64,000 nt of DNA from assembly GCA_004022145.1 (NCBI GenBank), contig RCNU01000002.1; one strand, 5' to 3'. A program made the position numbers and the translations under genes. The notes under the pieces are model-generated. The model saw only the letters and a program-made list of their open reading frames with translations, ran no database searches and was not told where the DNA came from. The DNA is from Paecilomyces variotii. Taxonomy: Eukaryota. Positions within the stretch are counted from its first letter, which is position 1; every line of letters starts with the position of its first letter. Of the stretch, positions 47,273 to 58,599 are shown piece by piece.

Positions 47273-50200
47273 TCACTCGATAACGAGCCACCACCATTCC
47301 TTAACAAACCAACCTGGCTCATTTTCTCGCTCTCGTTCCTGCCCCCGTGCAACTGACGTCTGGTCGGCAGCTTCACGACTCACGACACCTACTTGTTCCA
47401 TCCACTCCAGTAACAGCTCCACCTCCCATGCACCCATGGTCGGTTTTATCATGCTTGCGATGGAAGCGGCGCTGATGCCAGGGCGGAGTGCCACCGTTCC
47501 TATGATAGCCGCGACGGCTAGGTCCCAAACGCTTTTTACAAAATTCCGATGGACATCGAACCAGACGGGGACTCTCCCAGGGAATGGCTGCAGCGTCCAC
47601 TGCGGGGCGGATGGCACTGGGGTTGCTGTATCTGTGCGGTCGATTGTGCCAATGTCCATGTCGCCACGCGGAGGTGGGATAGTTGACAACTTTTCCCTGA
47701 TCGGATTCCCGTAGACGTACTTCCCACGCACCGGATGCACTTCAATTGCAAACCGGAGCTTGCTCTTCTCGATCAATCTCGTGAGATACCCGCCATCCGT
47801 CAGACCGTACTTAGCCCTGGGAGGGTCTCTGGGCCTGAGGATGATCCTTCCTTCAGATACCAGATTGATGAGGGCTAATAATTGACCGTCTTCTGCAGCA
47901 TAGCTGACCTCGTGATGGTTCTGTTGTTTGAATTGCTTGTCCAGAACAGTCGTCTTGAACCGCGCTGCTACCTTAAGCTGCGCCGAGTCAATCGGCCGCC
48001 TGCGACTTAGCATCGCTAGGAAGTGATCGGTAATATCATAATTTCGACCGGGAGTGATGCGGCCTTTGTTACCCATCGAAATAGAACGTTCCGTAACCAG
48101 TGACTGCACGGCGTCGCGAACGAGTCTTTCGCCGAACCGCTCCAATGCTTGTCGCGCATCAGCCGGTCTATATGCTTCCTCTGGAGTGATAATGTTTGCT
48201 CGAACCCAAGTCTTTACCGTCTCCAACTGTGCGAGTTCTGCCCGCCTCTGTGACATGCCAGGACGGTGTTCTTTAAGCGGTATTGCAAATGGCACGCTTG
48301 TAAATAGCGACCGCTTCCGTGTAAGAGTAACAGTGGTGGTGTTACGATTGTAGATCTCCTCTATCGAAATCGGAGGCTCTGTTCTGATTTCGAACAGTCT
48401 ATCAAACTGATCCCGAGTGGCAGGCAGTTCTAGGAGAGTTTGGTCTGATGTGGGAATGTCCAGTTGGCTGTCAGCCCACTTCACTATCCATTCCCAATCG
48501 TACGCGTCCAGATTGCCGTAGTCAATGGCAGGGACTTCGTCATTTTGATACGCCTCTATGAAGCGCTCCTGGAAATCACTCTGCATTTTGGCCATCTGTA
48601 GCCTACTTCTGTTCGTAATCGTCCTGCCACGGTCTTGTATGAATTGTGGGTCATGGCCCGGGAATGCCTTTGAGACAAGATCCCAATCAATCATTCTGCC
48701 TTCAATTCCACCTGCCAAAGTCCGCACGACGACCATCGCGGTTGTGAGCTTTCGGACGAAGTCATCAGGCATTGCTTTGATAAATCGGTTCCGTCGAGCA
48801 GAGAAGCGGGATGGAGCTTTTCGTCCCTGCGATTTCTGTGCTTCCACCTCTTCGGCCATAACAGATTCATTCAATCTCGACAGACGCCGGCTTTGCGGTG
48901 CAACAGTCTCGAAACGTGCATCTCCTTCTTGAAGGTCTGAGACCCGAGTTTGAGCAGGAAGAAGGCGAGAACGAGGGCGTAAGACCCGCTTCGGAATAGG
49001 AGAGCGAGCCGGATGCGAGACAGGTTCATCAAAGTCGAACCGGATTTCTCCTTCAACAGGCGCTATATCAAAGGAGCCATCGACAGTCTGGTTGATGTAG
49101 CGAAGGTTGTCACTGCGGCGATCAAAGAGCTGCGAATTCTGGATCTCCCATCTGGCGATGGCATCGTTATCCAAGAAAAACTTGCTGGAACGAGGGTCAA
49201 CCTCCGCTGAAAAGTCGACTTTGTGTCTTCTAGTCCTGGACATGATATCATCAACAGACTGAGGCAGGGAGAGCCCGGGGATCTCTTTGAAACCATGTCT
49301 GGGGTATGCCGCCAGACCTGCATCTGTAGAAAAGGTCCCTGTCGAAGGATGGAATTTCTGTACTGGCTTCATGAGCATGGCATGAGGAGCCATGGCTGAT
49401 ATCCGATGCCATATTCGCTTCATCCTACGCGGTTGTAGAGCCTCAGTGTCTTGTATCCGTCCGTTCGTTCTCTGCACTATGCGCCGTCTGCCTTCTGTAC
49501 CAGCGAGGCCAGGCCTCGATATTGATGTCAAACTGCTGAAGAAAGCATCCTCCTCGTTCAAAGGACGCTGGATCTTCATCAAACGCCTCACCCTTTCTTT
49601 GCGCCGCGGGCTTTTAGAACGATCACCTTCTCCCTCACCGCGAAGCAAACGTCTTTGGATTCTGCGACCTCTCCTCTGTTCCAGTGCAACGACGAATGCG
49701 GGTTTTTGATGAAGCTGCACAGTGATATCTTCTCGGACTGGCAGACTAGTAATGGCCCTTTGGCCTCGTGCAGGAGTAAACTTGTTACCACTCTTTGTGA
49801 GCTCTGGGTTGATCTCAACATTGGGCGGGAAATAGAACCGCGACCCTGCAGCAAGCATCTTTTTCTGTAAATCCATGATTAGAGGGTCGTCTGCGGGTAA
49901 ATCTGGCTTTGTTATCATGGTCTTTGTGACCATAATGCCTTTATCGTCCATCCCACTAAAAGTCATTTGACGTAGCTTGCCAGCATCAACCATGTGCTTC
50001 ACAGTCGATCTGATCGTCCTAAGGTCAGGCCTTTCTGTGTACCTAGTCTTAAGCCAAGCTGTCGTGAATGGATACCAGAGCTCTGTGCCCAGCGGATATG
50101 CACCTCCAGCTTTTTCAATAATCTCCATCACTATGTTTCTCCGCAGCATGGTAACAGAGCCTCCTTTTTCCATTCGGACTTTCTTCACTTTCCTCTTCCG

Positions 50201-53200
50201 TCCCGTAGCTTGTATAGGTTCTCCACCGTCGACATCCGGACGTTCTCCTGTCGCAGCCCCAATGCCTATCCCCGAAGTTTCATTGGGTGTATTTGCCATA
50301 ACACTTTCATTCCCAGCGGCACTTTCCACCTTAGTCAATGCTTGTAGCTCTGGTTCCAGTTCTGGCACTGATTCCGGTTCCACTGCGTTTGACACTTGTC
50401 CTCTCTCTTCGAGGGTATGTGACTCTGTAGCCTCCACGGCGCCTGCAATCTCCCCCTGGATTTCCGTGTCAGCCGTATGAGTAACCTCGGTCGACGTTTC
50501 GCCTTGCACATCATCGACCTCCATTGTCTGCACAGTTTTTACAGTCTCTGGTTCTGGCTCTGGCTCTGGCTCTGGTTCTGGTGCTGGTTCTGGCTCTGGC
50601 TCTGGCTCTGGTGCTGGTGCTGGCTCTGGCTCTGGTGCTGGTGCTGGCTCTGGTGCTGGTTCTGGTGCTGGTTCTGGTGCTGGCTCTGGTTCTGCCTCCG
50701 GCTCCGGCTCTCGACTTTCCGTTGTGGTTGAGATGCGAGGGCGCTTGCGCGGTTGATTCTCTTCGATAGGAGACTGGACCGGCACATCATCACCGGCGTC
50801 TGCCAGTACATTATTCTCCTCATTTTCTATGACCTTCTGTATATCTTGAGCCTTCCCTCCAGTGCTTTTCTTTGGTCTCCCGCGTTTTCGAGTGGGCTGA
50901 GGAACAGGCTCTGGTGGATGATCAGCTAACTGGTCTTCTGTGATTTCCTTTTCTGCTTCGACGTCCGGCATGTGCTGATCCGGAGCTGCAGCCGTTTCCT
51001 GTGCATTCACGCTTGCAAGTGTCTCTACACGTGCTTTCTTAGGTGGCCGGCCACGTCTCCGTTTAGCTGGTGGGGGTGTCACAACGGCCTCAACGCTCTC
51101 AGAGAAGGTTCTCTTGTTACTATTGGCACCAATGACTGTATTTTGACCAGTTTCCTCAACCGGATTTTCGGCCTGCGCAATTGCGGAAGACACGGCCTCG
51201 GGCGTAGGCGCTGACACAGCAACCGTATCTTCAACTTCCGCATCGGGGTCTTCTCTGTCAGAAAACCAAGGAAGCGTCCTCAAATTTGGTGACTTGAAGA
51301 TAGCGATTTGGCTAATCCGAGGGCGTCCCTGTCTCTTTCCCATCGGCCGTCGTCTGCCACGAGGAGTCACATAGACTCCAGAGTGAGGACGCTCCATGAG
51401 TACGACATTATACTCTGTCCAGGACTCATCCAGTCCCATGGCTTCTAGCATTTCTTTCTCCGACATTCCCGGGTAGCGTGCAGGGTCGTACTTCGATAAC
51501 TTGTGGCGCCTGACGGTTGGCGTTGCCGTAGCGCTCTCAGCATCGTCTAACTCTGTTTCAGGTAAGACACGGCCCTTAGGAAGAAGAGGAGTCTCGTCTG
51601 GACGGTCGGGAGAACCTTCTTCGCGTGCCTTCTTTGGTCGTCGCCCGCGCGATTTCCATGGAGTCTTTAGACGTTCTAAAGCGCCGTTGGGAAGCTTTTC
51701 ACGCCCATCTCTGACAACTACTAGACTGTCAGCATAATCACATGCAAGATATACGGGTATTAGAAGCTTACCATAACTCCCATCCTCTAGCATTACTGCT
51801 ACAGGATCGCTCTTCGAGCGGAAATAATCAGCTGGCTTCGCTGCAGCGGCACACTCAAGGAGAGTGGCATCGCCTTTCCTCAATAGATCTTTGGTTGGAA
51901 TATCCAAAGGAAAGCCGAACTCATCGACTTGAGGAACTGCATCCACAGGTGGTACTTCGATATTCCCACTTTTACCATCCCTAGGGATGAACTCTACTGC
52001 TTCCCAGCTCGCCTGCCCCGCATCAACCAGTTTGCTGAAATTCCGAGCAGAATAATGGACATAGAGAGTTATGGTCTTGTTGAGCGCCGTGTCTCGAACA
52101 AGGGCTAAGTGTCGTAGATGGGGTGGTTGGGATATCTGCCAACATTCGACTAAGCGGGATAATGCGTTTTCCAAAGGCCTCCTGAAGAAGCCACCAAAGC
52201 ACACTCTTATCGTTTCCTGCATCCTCTCAGTTAGTATTGGCAAGGCTTACAATCTCAAATGCAGGGTGGCTCACAATGTTTGTCCTTCCAACTGTCCCAG
52301 AACGATCTATTGCTTCAAATATCAAATTGTAGACGTTTCGATCAGGGGTCCACGTCGGAAGCATTCTTCCACCTTCTTCAAGGCCTTCCTTTGTGACGAC
52401 ACCAACATCTTGTGAGCCGGAAGTGCCAGCTCTATCTTCCTCGCCTTGCAGATCCTCATCGAGCTCCACACTGGCATTACCTTCCTGCTCTAGGTTTGCG
52501 AACAAGTTTCGACTATCGTCAATAAACAACTGGATATCCTTCTCGGATGGTTCCCGAATAAGCATGACACAGGGGTGTAGAGCTTTCATCGTATCAGCAT
52601 ACTGTGACATAGCCCTCACGCGCTTGAGGACGCCGATGCGCTCGAATTTTCGAAGCGCGCGAGAAAGGATCTTCCAGCGCCAAAGGTCGTTAAAGCCGAG
52701 AATACGTTTAAGATCGATACGTGCGATGACACCGTACTCTTTCAATATCTCAAAGAGCTTGTCGGTGAATACTTTAAAGTCGAGTATATGTTCCTTCTCT
52801 TCCTTCGAGGCGTCTGCTGGGGTCTCCGCGCTATCGAAAGCTGGCTTGGCTTGAACGAATTTTCTGAGTGTGCACAAACTCGTTCTCGCCGATTTTACTT
52901 GGATCGCTCTCTTTTCGATATATCCCTTCTGCTGCAACACATCCGTACGCTTTGGTACCGATCGCTTATCTTGGCCACTCAGTCGGACTAATTCTGTCTG
53001 CACTATTCCTCTGGACTTGCGAGAAGCAATTATCGAAAGGAGTGCAAATTCTGTGGGTAGAACTTTGGTCACATCCGGTCCATGGCCCGTGATCGCGAAC
53101 CATGTCCGTTCTTCAGAAACGAACACGCGAGGCACTTCACGACCTTCAGATACTGGCGGTTTGGTCTCCGTGTCGGGCGCAACTGGAGAATCAACTGTAG

Positions 53201-53915
53201 GAGTATCTTCCTCATTTGTGGCTGGTGTCCCTGAAACACGCTCCTCTGCCTCGGCCAAGGTGAGATGGTTCCATTCCCTGTTCTTGCCGACTGATACCTC
53301 AGGATTCCTGGTCAGCCAGGACCAGACTTTCTCCTGAAACGGTCTGTTAATGGAGGGAATGCGGCGGTGTGATGCGCCTGAGGCATCTGATACTCCATCT
53401 TGAGCAGCACGTTTGTAGAAAGCATCGACGAAGGCCAGAACATCAGATGGAGAAGCCCCTGGAGATAATTAGCCTTATCCCAAAGAATTCAACTATCTTA
53501 GAAGATGACAAAAAAAGAAGATTCGCAAGAATATTTTCCATCAAGCGCAGTGAAGTACAAAATCACCAGGGTGTAACACTTCATTGGCCAACGCAGTAAA
53601 AATAGAGAAACAAGCCAATACTAGAAACGATCTTTTGTTCATTTCAAACTTGGGGTATCTGGCACTCATGTAAAGCATGCGTCAAAACGTGATATAGAAA
53701 AGAAAAGAAGAGAGGAAAATCAACGTCGCTGGGGTAAAAAAATCTAAGAAATCAAAACACCAAAATATAAAAAAAAAAAAAAATACGAAAACCAACATGC
53801 GCATCGATGCGACAGAGCGCAAACCCCTCGTGAGGGAACAATACGTACCCTGATCACCGCAGAGAGCGATTTCTGAGAGCAAAAAATCGATCAAATCGTT
53901 AAAACCGCGGGCCAT
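47273..53915 (-). CDS. tfc3: RNA polymerase III transcription factor TFIIIC B-block-binding large subunit (Tfc3/Sfc3-like)
   Basis: Exons 53915-53849, 53458-52275, 52216-51772, 51720-47273; [56 protein letters not shown] (B-block-binding winged helix), C-terminal VPVWFD..LRPG..EWWW. Confidence 0.9.
50548..50711 (-). repeat. Coding hexanucleotide repeat giving an (EP/AP)n tract in TFIIIC subunit
   Basis: Tandem GAGCCA/GAACCA/GCACCA units encoding [16 protein letters not shown]... Confidence 0.9.
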
Positions 53916-53994
53916 GGTTACCTGGGCCTTGACAGGCCCTTCAACTGTGATTCCAGGGTGTTAGTGCGTTCAGGTCATTTGATGGCGACTGCGC

Positions 53995-54081
53995 GATTCG
54001 AACTCGAGTCGCTCGAACGAAAGGGATGAGCTCTTTTTTTTTCTTCTTTGGAGGGGAAAGACGTCAATGAGTGAGTTGAAC
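53995..54081 (-). promoter_or_regulatory. Stand-alone Pol III B-box motifs (ETC/COC-like) upstream of the TFIIIC subunit gene
   Basis: Minus-strand GTTCGAATC (54003-53995) and GTTCAACTC (54081-54073) match GTTCRANYC; near match GTTCGAGCG (54018-54010); no A-box or cloverleaf seen. Confidence 0.65.
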
Positions 54082-54581
54082 TTAACTCGATTCGGTGGCG
54101 GGGGCGGGGTGGCACGTGCTACGCCGCCATACAGCGGCAGAATACACACCGCCCGGTGCCTGCATACCAGAGCCGATGTGGTGTTGCGATTTGCTCGATC
54201 CTGTTTGAGACGATACTAGTCTGAAGGGAATAGGGTAGAACGATATTAATGCTTCGATCTTTCCCTAAAGGACCCAGCGCCCGTAGTGGTAACAATGTAC
54301 CAGCCTTTACGTTGTGCTCCTGGCTGTTTCTCGCTTGGTAGACGCGTAGTATGGCAGAACATACAAGGACTGCAGAAGGGATCAAGAAAGCAGCAGACGT
54401 GTCTATATGACTGCCCAGAGGCATAGATTGGATCAGTGGTATACTATGCTAATTAGATCTAACCAGTATTCTAATACTGACAGATGTGTTCATCAACTCA
54501 AAAGAACACATCATTTTTGGAAAATAGGAAAAACACAACCCACATGCCCACAAGACACGTAGGGGTATCAGCCAAATTGTA

Positions 54582-54584
<3 letters not shown>

Positions 54585-54629
<45 letters not shown>
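54585..54629 (+). repeat. Poly(A) tract, 45 nt
   Basis: Homopolymer read directly. Confidence 0.9.
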
Positions 54630-54631
<2 letters not shown>

Positions 54632-54998
54632 TAAAAGACGGACAAGAAAAAGACAAGGCTGAAATCCACAGAGGAACTTCAACTCAGTATCACGATATCC
54701 AGTCAATCCCGAAAAGCCAATATCGTGCCGCCAAATGATTAAATACCAAGCATCTCAGACGCCATCCCTGCTCTCAGCAATGCAATTGGAATTATGCAAA
54801 CCATGCGCCTGAAGATCCATCCGGTCGTAAAATGCACGTCCATAGACACAATAAAATGAAATCAACGCGAAATGGTAAGGTCGGACCAAGACGTCTCTTG
54901 CATGAATAAGGATCTCGTCTTGAGAGATCCAGATGAGATCTCGGTATGCGGCGAACAGTGTCCAGCAACCGTTCCATCCACAGCCCGTTATTCATGGC

Positions 54999-55924
54999 TC
55001 ATTTCATTCCAACGAGCCCTCGAACTCTCTCCACCCGCTCGATGGCCTTCTCCAACATATCAAGCCTCTTTCTTTTCTCCCCGTCTCTCCGTTCGAGTAT
55101 CTCCACTCGTTCTTCCAGTTTAGCACGGGCTTTCCGCTCTTCAGCCACCATCTCATTCGCCTGACTGAAAAGCTGCGCCGTCAGTTCTTCAAGCTCCGAG
55201 TTGGCCTGTGACAGCCTCGACTCTGCTGCCTTCCGCAGGTTCTGTTCGCGGCTCAAGGCATCCTGCAGTTCGGAGTTGGTGTGTGCATGGTTGGACGATG
55301 CACTGCTTGGACCAGAAGATGTGGCAATATTTCTGCGATACGGAAGGAAAGACGTGAAGCTAGTAAGACGACTTGTCTGCGGTTGCGGCGGAAGGGATTC
55401 CGGTGCGGACGAGGCGAGAGTCGAGGTTGTCCCTGCCACTGAAGGGCCTAATACTGCTGCTGGTGCAGAGGACGTAGATGATATCGAACCATTCTTCTGC
55501 GAATACGCTGGCGTTTGCGAACGGAGTATATTGATCTCGTCTTCGTAATCGGCAAGTTTCTCAGCTATAAGCACACAAGGATGTCAACAAGGGGAGGGTT
55601 TCTTAGAAGATGATAGTGCCCAGGGGAAAGATAGCAAGATCACGACTGTACATAATCTACGGATCTTCCAGCTTTGACGGCGAGGCAAAAAAAAAAGAGA
55701 TATCTCTTACCTGTCTGCGCTTGCCTAGCCGTCAGAAACTTGACCTGAGACTCGAGTTCCTGGATTCTTCGCCGGGCCTCGTCGTTGATCTGTTCTGTCG
55801 AGACAGGAACATCCTGGCCGCAGTGAGGACAATGTACTCCAGATGCAACAACCACCGTGCCAGTCATAGGTGGCAGCGCTCCAACGAGGGTCGTTTTGGT
55901 GGTGGTGGTAGCAGTCGTTGACAT
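54999..55924 (-). CDS. Short Sec2-domain (Rab GEF-like coiled-coil) protein
   Basis: Intron 55710-55565; CPHCG, AEKLADYEDEI, AAESRLSQANSELEELTAQLFSQANEMVAEERKAR; start codon uncertain. Confidence 0.82.
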
Positions 55925-58599
55925 GTCCAGGACATACGGCGGTGGGTCGGGCCAGTTAAGCCAAAAGGAGAAATTCGTGTATAATAATAAATACTTAGTT
56001 CCCTGGAAAAGCAGATCCTCTTACGGCGATGGCTATACTGCTTCGTAGGTAGTTTGAAGAAGTCCAAAAGACGACTCGAAGACGCCCAGGTTCACGAATC
56101 TAGGGAGTCAGCAGTGAATCCAGGGCCATTCCAGCCTCATGTCCGGTTGTTGCTGTCCAACGTGCGGCTCACTAGTCGGTCTCAGATGGCGATCCTCAAT
56201 GCCTGCGCCACTAGATCCCCGCCACGAACAACGGCCGCGCAACTGACTAACGGTGTCAAACCTCCTTCAATCTCCACACTAGTAGTCCCTGGATGTTGTA
56301 ACGGATCTAAAACAGGACGAGACGCGCTCTCAATTTGGGCAATTTATGGGTCAGGCCGTTTTAACGGTCTGCACGCTGTCCTCCTATGTCTTGGAACTTG
56401 AGGTTACTCGGCGCGATAGAATAAAGACAGCCGGAAATCAAACCCCTACAAGAAATCATAACCTCCAAGGTCCTCCTATTTCTTGTTTGGATATATGGTG
56501 TTCAATTCTCACATCAAAATAAGAAGTGAAAATAAGCGATACCACGCCAGCCAACAATATGGGGCTGCTTGGGGGCCACATTTTTGGGGTCGGTCTTAAT
56601 TTATATATTTATGGTACTCCGTACTCCGTACATTTATCCCAGACCCCTCGTATCTATTTTTGTACTGTACTCCACAAACAAACGCCTTTAGACTCTAAGG
56701 ACAAGTCTCTTTATACCACACCAAGACCCCCGTTGGACTCCCTGCTCGCACTCATAAGCTTCCCAGACCCAAGTCAGTAAAAGCTTTATCTATTCATTAT
56801 ATGCCCACTAATGGCCCCCCAAAAAGTCACAATTAGTCGGCAGTGTCGACTAAAAACACTCAGTGCCAGAGGTCGAGCAATCCCATTGCAACACTACCAG
56901 CCGGGCAATTAGAAAGCTCAGACGTCCTATACATCCACAGAATACTGAATATCTCAATTCTTTATTGTCTAGAAAAGAGGGGGCGCCCGTTATCAGAGAG
57001 TTATCTTACTTGGTTTGCCCTCCAAGTTGCTGCTTCATAGCCTGGAGTATACACAAAGGAACACTAATCTCAGCCCCCTTAATCGTAGTATGCCGCTTAA
57101 GAACCCCAATTACCGCTCCAATCTCGAGACTACATAAGCACACGGTGCATCCTTCAACAGTAGTAGTCTATCAGCTTCTCACCCTGTCACGAGTGATCTT
57201 GTCGTAAATCAGAATAGGATGCAAGGGGCTGAACGTCTAATTGCGGAGGCAATTCCTAGTTTTGGTCATGCGCAATCTGAAAATAATAAATTTTACTGTA
57301 TGTGGTCGACGAACCTTGGCTTCTCAACGGATATGGCTTTATATCGTGATTGCAGATTCTCTGGACTCGTTCCTCTCGGCAAATTAAAGAGTCTGGTTGC
57401 ACTCATATTCATGAAAGACAGCATCGAAATCCTTTGTATGGTGCTCGTTTTGAGTTTATGAAGCTGCAATATAAATATGGCCATGGCGGTCCCCTTCACG
57501 ACGCTGGCCATAGGAGACGCAAGAATAAGACATGGGCATTACTAGTACTGTACTATAAACAGTGCTGTTTCTAGACTAAGTGAAGCAATTCTCAATGGTC
57601 TGAATACGTAGTGCATCCAGTAGTCCTACACCATTTTGGCTTCAGGACGTACAAGACGGATAATCTTAAAACGTGAAGAGAGTTTCCATATTTTCGTAAA
57701 CCCCATGCTCTATCGACTCGGTTTGCTCAGTCATAAAAAAAGAAAGAAAACGAGGTGACAGGAAATAAGGAGAAATTCTAGATAGCAGTTGCCCAGCAAA
57801 GCTCTTCAAGTTGGTATGACTCGACAGCATTCAAGAGCAGATGGAATGTCGGAAAGTATCCTCGCTCTTCCGTCTTTACAGACAAGGTTTTTTGGAATGC
57901 TGTGTTGAACAAAAGAAAGTAGCTCTCCCAGGACGAGAACTATCATAGACTTCACACTTAGTCCTCCTCGATCTAGACGACGCAGACACAGAAAGACGGG
58001 GAATAAGTGACACAAGTATCATAAAGAAATAGTAGATAGGCGAAGAAAAGAAGACATCAGGGTCAGCTACCCACTTCTCCGTTACCTCTCAGCATGAGCC
58101 GTCACAGTCGTAGATATGTGATAGATGATCCTCACATGGGTACAGTTAGGTGATGGGAATACAAACAAGGTAACAAACTTTTGAATCATTGAACGATGAC
58201 AGGGCATTAGTAGCGCAACAGGGAATACTAAGACGAAAGACATCATGAACCAAAAAGGAGGCTCAAGTAGCTGAAAGGCGCAGGCGATCTAGAACCGAGC
58301 CAAAACAGCCACCAGGATGAGTAAAACCAGGCCACTTCCGTAGCTCGTGCAACTTGGGTGAGAAAGTACAGCCCTTGAGCACAGCCTGACGGAAATGAAG
58401 CGATCCTTTCCTTGAACCACCGTTCCCCGCAGGACGGTGGACGCACTCGAAATCGGAGCGCCAGGCACGCCAGTTGACAGAACAAACTTGATCAACCGCG
58501 CAAGCGAAGAAGAGTTAAACATCCAGCAGACTCCACGACACCAAAGACAAGCACGATGCCTCGATCCTAGACGGTTGCGTCAAACGGGTATTAGTACAT

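Follow-up and report, generated by a model that had tools for sequence, protein, structure and literature searches.

Through an orphan B-box, transcription factor IIIC (TFIIIC) can repress a gene that encodes one of its subunits; a single yeast gene is the known case. In Saccharomyces cerevisiae, TFIIIC bound at the site ETC6 in the TFC6 promoter, over about −150 to −90, lowers TBP occupancy and represses the gene approximately twofold (Kleinschmidt et al. 2011, according to the commentary PMC3334521). The commentary draws a comparison with bacterial autorepressors, and asks whether other TFIIIC subunits are autoregulated (PMC3334521). Here, a 64,000-nt stretch of the Paecilomyces variotii genome (assembly GCA_004022145.1, contig RCNU01000002.1; hereafter the window) was analyzed for an orphan B-box, GTTCGAATC, in the promoter of tfc3, the gene for the TFIIIC subunit tau138. 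A first-pass annotation had placed this perfect B-box 80 bp before the tfc3 ATG in the orientation of the gene, with a second match, GTTCAACTC, 78 bp further up and an 8/9 match between the two. All three were found, the last being GTTCGAGCG (Table 1).

Extra TFIIIC (ETC) sites are a class defined by TFIIIC occupancy without TFIIIB or RNA polymerase III (Pol III) (Moqtaderi and Struhl 2004, as presented in the accessible parts of PMC3395662 and PMC11724288). As far as the class is described there, the element in the window resembles it in being a B-box without an A-box or Pol III gene, in its intergenic position beside an RNA polymerase II (Pol II) promoter, in having conserved positions beyond the canonical B-box, and in not requiring a G before GTTC. 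It differs in being known here from sequence alone, whereas the class rests on occupancy, and in not keeping the G at +19. Compared with the tRNA B-box, for which the accessible part of PMC3395662 gives the consensus GGTTCGANTCC, the core GTTCGANYC is shared, as are a C at the equivalents of tRNA positions 48 and 72 and an A at 73; a cloverleaf, T-stem pairing, an above-chance A-box and a fixed terminator are not.

The closest likeness is to ETC6 itself. In each case an orphan B-box stands approximately 90–150 nt upstream of a tau-B subunit gene, in its Pol II promoter. Both are conserved among related species, and both offer a direct (here putative) route for TFIIIC to repress its own synthesis. 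The gene here is tfc3 (tau138, the B-box reader) and not tfc6 (tau91), conservation extends across classes of Pezizomycotina and not only among sensu stricto yeasts, and the 3′ extensions have only the C at +20 in common. The site-bearing gene in moulds could be a different subunit gene from that of budding yeast, or an additional one. In fission yeast, chromosome-organizing clamp (COC) sites and the inverted repeat (IR) boundaries of the mating-type region are Pol III-free TFIIIC B-box clusters. The tfc3 element is likewise a putative Pol III-free TFIIIC site, and some lineages have two or three strong sites in the same orientation around exon 1; it differs in that the window has a single strong site and no evident heterochromatin context. 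As in bacterial autorepressors, a DNA-binding factor with a site overlapping its own promoter would form a simple negative feedback, as proposed below; the binder here is a six-subunit complex, and the gene of one subunit is known to carry the site. In the literature covered, with most subscription journals outside full-text coverage, neither a B-box in a tfc3/sfc3 promoter nor ETC sites in filamentous fungi were found. The different subunit (the B-box reader itself), the depth of conservation and the extended consensus are new.

Relatives of the locus were collected with an alignment of exon 2 of the window gene and the N-terminal parts of eight named orthologues as the query, and a scan of metagenome contigs yielded 60 loci encoding relatives with 25–66% identity. 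The search patterns used (GQDKRSVP and WLTx[HN]PEVS) would miss yeasts and basidiomycetes, and all conservation claims exclude those groups. Exon 1 was placed by a peptide pattern in 46 loci, by a relaxed pattern in three more and in L026, and by reading downstream of a GTTCGA in six further loci. A profile built from the first 46 confirmed L022, L052, L053, L031, L054, L056, L059, and L026 (E ≤ 1.4e-5). Usable upstream sequence was lacking for L025, L037, L038, and L057, and was too short for L014 (8 nt) and L015 (91 nt), the contig of the latter starting with TTCGAACC at −90. Loci were merged at 80% nucleotide identity, which resulted in 36 representatives with enough upstream sequence, window included. 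The flanks in the same loci (2 × 197,876 positions, containing 128 GTTCGA and 27 strict 9-mers) served as the background. For taxonomic placement, tblastn against 17 named proteins was used.

A forward GTTCGA was present at −62 to −134 from the ATG in 53 of 54 assessable loci. When counted by lineage, window included, 36 of 37 assessable ones keep a GTTCGA-type B-box of the same orientation at this distance, and the presence of the proximal motif in orthologous promoters, which the first-pass annotation had proposed for checking, was thus established. All 36 representatives carry the GTTCGA core within an 86-nt span on one strand (binomial P 6e-57) and 27 of them match the strict GTTCRANYC (P 4.6e-53), although the lineages are related and these P values overstate their independence. 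The site is located at a median of −93 (interquartile range −81 to −99). It persists down to approximately 27% protein identity, with the surrounding promoter unalignable, and in six Eurotiales promoters the B-box block is the sole run of invariant columns. In leave-one-out tests, it was the top matrix match of the whole locus in 31 of 36 cases. Elsewhere in the 198 kb of flanks, GTTCGA occurs at 3.2e-4 per position vs 2.4e-4 for a random hexamer.

The representatives include Eurotiales (the window, L001, L004, L006, L007, L008, and L010), one member of Onygenales (L005, 73% identical to an Arthroderma protein), and Pleosporales-like Dothideomycetes (L050, 80–86% identical to Parastagonospora proteins, and nine representatives at 41–59%). 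Four more are nearest to a Dothideomycetidae protein (32–48%), and 14 were unplaced. The site is older than the split between Eurotiomycetes and Dothideomycetes. The gene upstream of tfc3 in the window encodes a Sec2p-domain protein, and tblastn gave no match to it in any of the 36 loci searched. The conserved element therefore goes with tfc3 and not with the neighbour.

Within the window, the leave-one-out matrix scored the proximal site at 27.1 bits, vs 13.6 for the next best position in the 64 kb. The annotation had regarded two motifs at this gene as improbable by chance; the count does not bear this out, since the window contains 11 GTTCRANYC, where 9.53 are expected, and a count of 11 is reached in 35 of 100 shuffled sequences. 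Motif density in the window by itself proves nothing. The proximal motif exceeds chance because it is conserved in orthologous promoters. The matrix built from other lineages gave 3.0 bits for the motif at −166 and 1.3 bits for that at −103, neither has a counterpart in the closest relatives (L001–L003), and both were rejected as conserved sites. The suggestion that the B-boxes at tfc3 matter is therefore supported for the proximal one and not for the two others.

The gene was identified from its own sequence. Exon 2 carries the B-block-binding region of TFIIIC (Pfam B-block_TFIIIC; Table 1), and it is separated by a short intron from the remaining frame, in which a C-terminal open reading frame of 1649 aa (47273–52222) matches PF20222 (DUF6581) at residues 1149–1589. 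PF20222 is a Pfam "family of unknown function" that co-occurs with PF04182 in nearly all of the named relatives listed; because of this, DUF6581 is recognized as the C-terminal region of fungal tau138. Among named proteins, the closest are Tfc3/sfc3 of Eurotiales, with at most 64% identity, and exon 2 aligns with the yeast tau138 chain 8ffz_B (E 0.0017). The equivalents of yeast R139 and S140 are retained inside an invariant GQDKRSV stretch, and a lysine is found at the equivalent of K223, where alignment confidence is modest. The peptide of exon 1 agrees with the N-termini of annotated orthologues and of the metagenome loci, and exons 1 and 2 join at a conserved position across the loci. The window gene is a tfc3/sfc3 (tau138) orthologue and encodes the B-box-reading subunit of TFIIIC. 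Its first intron, which always follows codon 22–23, has 390 nt in the window and, as estimated from ATG and match coordinates, roughly 150–330 nt in most loci, which is long by the standard of filamentous fungi.

The variable positions of the site are the degenerate positions of the B-box. Among the 36 representatives, every base occurs at position 7 (26 A, 3 C, 3 G, and 4 T), and 31 have a pyrimidine at position 8 (21 T and 10 C, with 4 A and 1 G in the others). At position 9, 32 carry a C, compared with 35 of 126 background GTTCGA sites. Conservation continues beyond the box, numbered along its strand. A C at −5 is present in 30/36 (background 35/126, Fisher P 2e-9), a C at +20 in 27/36 (41/126, P 6e-6), and an A at +21 in 19/36 (28/126, P 6e-4); these three coincide with tRNA positions 48, 72, and 73. 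In the cryogenic electron microscopy (cryo-EM) structure of yeast tau-B on the tRNA-His gene, the sole base-specific tau138 contact beyond the B-box that is described in the accessible part of PMC11724288 is that of K223 in WH3 with template G47. Since the numbering of the tRNA-His gene runs one below the standard tRNA numbering (PMC11724288, same part), the base pair read by K223 is position −5 here. On the 3′ side, all seven yeast ETC 23-mers visible in PMC3395662 end in GC at +19/+20 on the B-box strand, and the C at +20 is common to both sets (7/7 in yeast).

Some lineages have additional strong sites. Within 400 nt of the ATG, eight further sites of at least 14 bits, all in the orientation of the gene, were found in 7 of the 36 representatives; a single one was found in the remaining 177 kb, and 0.08 would be expected near the ATG (Poisson P 4e-14). 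Three related Pleosporales-like lineages conserve a second strong upstream B-box of the GTTCGAAAC type (L028 at −255, L029 at −256, and L045 at −272), approximately 160–175 nt above the main site. Strong B-boxes in gene orientation also occur in intron 1 (L040 at +94, L044 at +103 and +242, L050 at +82, L018 at +259, and L026 at +86 from the ATG). Several of these are located 12–33 nt from the 5′ splice site, and exon 1 is enclosed between them and the upstream site. The multi-site layout is real in part of the family, and this window has a single strong site.

No recognizable Pol III gene accompanies the site. As the annotation had stated, neither a tRNA body nor an A-box was detected: ARAGORN reported no tRNA genes in the 64-kb window or, as extended here, in the 60 loci, and no A-box-like motif was present upstream of the B-box in the window at tRNA-type spacing (31–93 bp). 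With relaxed ARAGORN settings, the yield equalled that of shuffled sequence (2 vs 1.8 and 19 vs 17). In Rfam, no family reached the gathering score in the window or 20 loci, and no tRNA-like match at E ≤ 10 was obtained in window positions 53000–55500 or 14 loci. The four T-stem pairs are formed in 17, 16, 14, and 13 of the 36 representatives, with 11.7–13.2 expected, and all four together in none. A-box-like motifs were found in 3/36 lineages vs 1.8 expected. With relaxed ARAGORN, T-stem pairing and the A-box scan all at control level, a cryptic tRNA was rejected. Separately, L013 and L016 have a canonical-looking A-box, TGGTCTAGTGG, 39 nt upstream of the B-box, a spacing shorter than that of any tRNA gene; no tRNA was found there. 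Runs of at least four T within 40 nt are more frequent downstream of the site (20/36) than upstream (3/36). Their start varies between +14 and +55, and 13/36 lineages lack them, including the window, which has no such run between the B-box and the ATG; a Pol III terminator was rejected because the runs have no fixed position.

The sequence of the site, its position, its orientation, its deep conservation and the lack of a tRNA are observed here. The favoured explanation, held at a probability of roughly 55%, is that GTTCGAATC and its flanks act in the tfc3 promoter as an ETC-like operator through which TFIIIC exerts negative feedback, similar to ETC6 at TFC6 and directed at another subunit. 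TFIIIC is predicted to bind the site, and this part is very probable; given binding, repression is somewhat more likely than activation. The site is a candidate high-affinity site for tau-B (Tfc3, Tfc6, and Tfc8) outside any Pol III gene. When B-box-binding TFIIIC is plentiful, the site would be occupied, and assembly or passage of Pol II at tfc3 would be hindered, either by occlusion of the core promoter or by a roadblock in the 5′ untranslated region (UTR). When TFIIIC is scarce, the site would be free and tfc3 transcribed, which would close a negative feedback loop.

Several observations weigh against the feedback operator, in addition to the relatedness of the lineages. The proposed feedback is built on the DNA itself and the ETC6 precedent. 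Nine of the 36 lineages deviate from the strict consensus, and three have an A where tRNAs have the invariant C61, within the palindrome TGTTCGAACA, which would also suit a dimeric factor. The locus L026 has no site upstream; its single site, GTTCGAGTC, is in intron 1, 12 nt from the intron start. The G that precedes GTTC (the first of GGTTCGANTCC), which is a tau138 contact, is kept in 7/36, and it is also rare in the yeast ETCs visible in PMC3395662 (2/7). The G at +19, invariant in those ETCs, is present in only 5/36. For two loci the start codon is less secure: profile confirmation of the L030 ATG was weak (E 0.066), and it failed for L060, where the ATG was located only by reading downstream of the motif. 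In four RNA-library runs, no spliced-RNA cover of exon 1 was found, and neither a start site nor a small RNA was seen; the site may belong to either the core promoter or the 5′ UTR.

An unlikely, though still appreciable, alternative is that TFIIIC binds without feedback, either as an activator or as a fixed architectural element that excludes nucleosomes, sets the start site, blocks read-through, or tethers the locus. The sequence evidence for binding is identical under both readings, and the tandem upstream gene, running toward tfc3, would suit such a role. Yeast ETCs act as boundaries and tethers, and loss of TFIIIC binding shifts the start sites of neighbouring genes (PMC3395662; PMC4228148), according to the accessible parts of these sources. 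The neighbour is not conserved, yet the site holds its distance and orientation to the tfc3 ATG; a generic boundary gives no reason for its presence at tfc3 in 36/37 lineages, and just one other site of at least 14 bits is present in the 177 kb of flanks, which contain promoters of other genes. The B-box could also be the promoter, or a remnant, of a small unrecognized Pol III transcript directed toward tfc3, with Pol III transcription across the promoter affecting the gene. The orientation of the B-box toward tfc3 in all lineages, the excess of T runs downstream, the correspondence of the three kept flanking positions with tRNA positions, and the A-box-like motif in L013 and L016 would all agree with this. 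Fungal Pol II core promoters have a pyrimidine tract, which would likewise fit the T-richness downstream of the site. The absence of any tRNA or Rfam match at the thresholds tried, T-stem pairing near chance, A-boxes at chance rate, and the scatter of the T runs make a Pol III transcript improbable.

Another sequence-specific Pol II factor that prefers GTTCGAA, with a coincidental likeness to the B-box, is at least as improbable. The core does include the palindrome TTCGAA, extended to the full palindrome in three lineages; all 36 of 36 have G57, a position at which tRNA B-boxes also accept A; and the lack of conservation of the G before GTTC fits this reading as well. Against it, the element is asymmetric, points the same way in every lineage, and varies where a B-box is degenerate. 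Two of its kept flanking positions agree with tau-B contacts and with the yeast ETC extension, the rest of the flanks shows no enrichment of GTTCGA, and the gene that carries the element is the one that encodes the B-box reader. Chance occurrence of short motifs agrees with the window-wide count and with the behaviour of the two weaker motifs; for the proximal motif it is refuted by the core in every representative, within one short span and on one strand, and its overall probability is negligible.

A wider form of the feedback reading is put forward tentatively, at somewhat below even odds. Under it, the site would be an ancient feedback operator, with position and orientation unchanged since before the split of Eurotiomycetes and Dothideomycetes; self-limitation of tau-B would be general in fungi, with the target swapped between tfc3 and TFC6. 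The second operator of some lineages, at the start of intron 1 or about 160 nt upstream, would form a pair with it that brackets exon 1 and might be bridged by tau-B dimers.

Other elements were recorded in the promoter and around it. The hexamer CACGTG occurs within 400 nt upstream of the ATG in 14/36 representatives, vs approximately 2.7 expected from the loci-wide rate (the window, L001, L004, L006, L008, L013, L018, L020, L030, L042, L046, L054, L056, and L059), 43–325 nt upstream of the B-box, and may represent another control element of the tfc3 promoter, kept less consistently than the B-box. Pleosporales-like promoters (L028, L029, L034, L039, L045, L049, and relatives) share a TTTGACATGC..TTAAGC block at +22 to +40 after the B-box and a second block, GGGGACGGG[TC]GG, at about −30 to −10 from the ATG, and related TCAAATG / TTTGACAT sequences follow the site in Eurotiales loci. 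The upstream Sec2p-domain gene of the window is on the minus strand. At 54382, a contig from one RNA library (run X17) ends in a loose tract of 12 plus-strand T; as a weak hint from one contig of one run, this end fits a poly(A) site of the Sec2p-domain gene, which would bound the tfc3 promoter to approximately 465 nt. An unbroken run of 45 A (54585–54629, plus strand) is located between the stop of that gene and the tfc3 promoter. Contigs of run X15 span 52000–56200 unbroken at approximately 96% identity. This cover looks like DNA of a related strain in a metatranscriptome and not like transcripts, because it crosses introns and intergenic DNA as well as exons.

Table 1. Positions of tfc3 and of promoter features in the window (distances such as −88 are from the A of the ATG; those of the extended element are along the B-box).
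Feature	Position	Strand	Basis or remark
tfc3 ATG	53915..53913	−	direct reading
tfc3 exon 1 (67 nt)	53915..53849	−	direct reading; A of ATG at 53915
tfc3 intron 1 (390 nt, GT..AG)	53848..53459	−	reading frame and splice sites
tfc3 exon 2, B-block-binding winged-helix region	53458..52275	−	PF04182, E 2.7e-24
Remaining tfc3 coding sequence, taken as a single open frame	52216..47273	−	PF20222, E 4.2e-127
Proximal orphan B-box GTTCGAATC	54003..53995	−	5′ G at −88; 3′ end 80 nt from A of ATG
8/9 motif GTTCGAGCG	54018..54010	−	at −103; weak, not conserved
Distal motif GTTCAACTC	54081..54073	−	at −166, 78 nt above the proximal B-box; weak, not conserved
Extended element: C at −5 (54008), B-box, C at +20 (53984), A at +21 (53983)	53983..54008	−	26 nt
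CACGTG E-box	54113..54118		115 nt upstream of B-box

For the question whether further TFIIIC subunits are autoregulated, the tfc3 site is a concrete candidate in genetically tractable moulds. It is defined to the base, and one point mutation is predicted to break it. The element shows that positions beyond the classical B-box are under selection at a putative Pol III-free TFIIIC site, one of them coinciding with a contact in the yeast cryo-EM structure. If the ancient-operator reading is true, few promoter elements of filamentous fungi would be as deeply conserved as this site, and the C at −5 and the C and A at +20 and +21 would together be an evolutionary record of the optimal natural tau-B site. 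Should the loop be real, control of TFIIIC dosage would date back further, and apply more widely, than the case of budding yeast had suggested.

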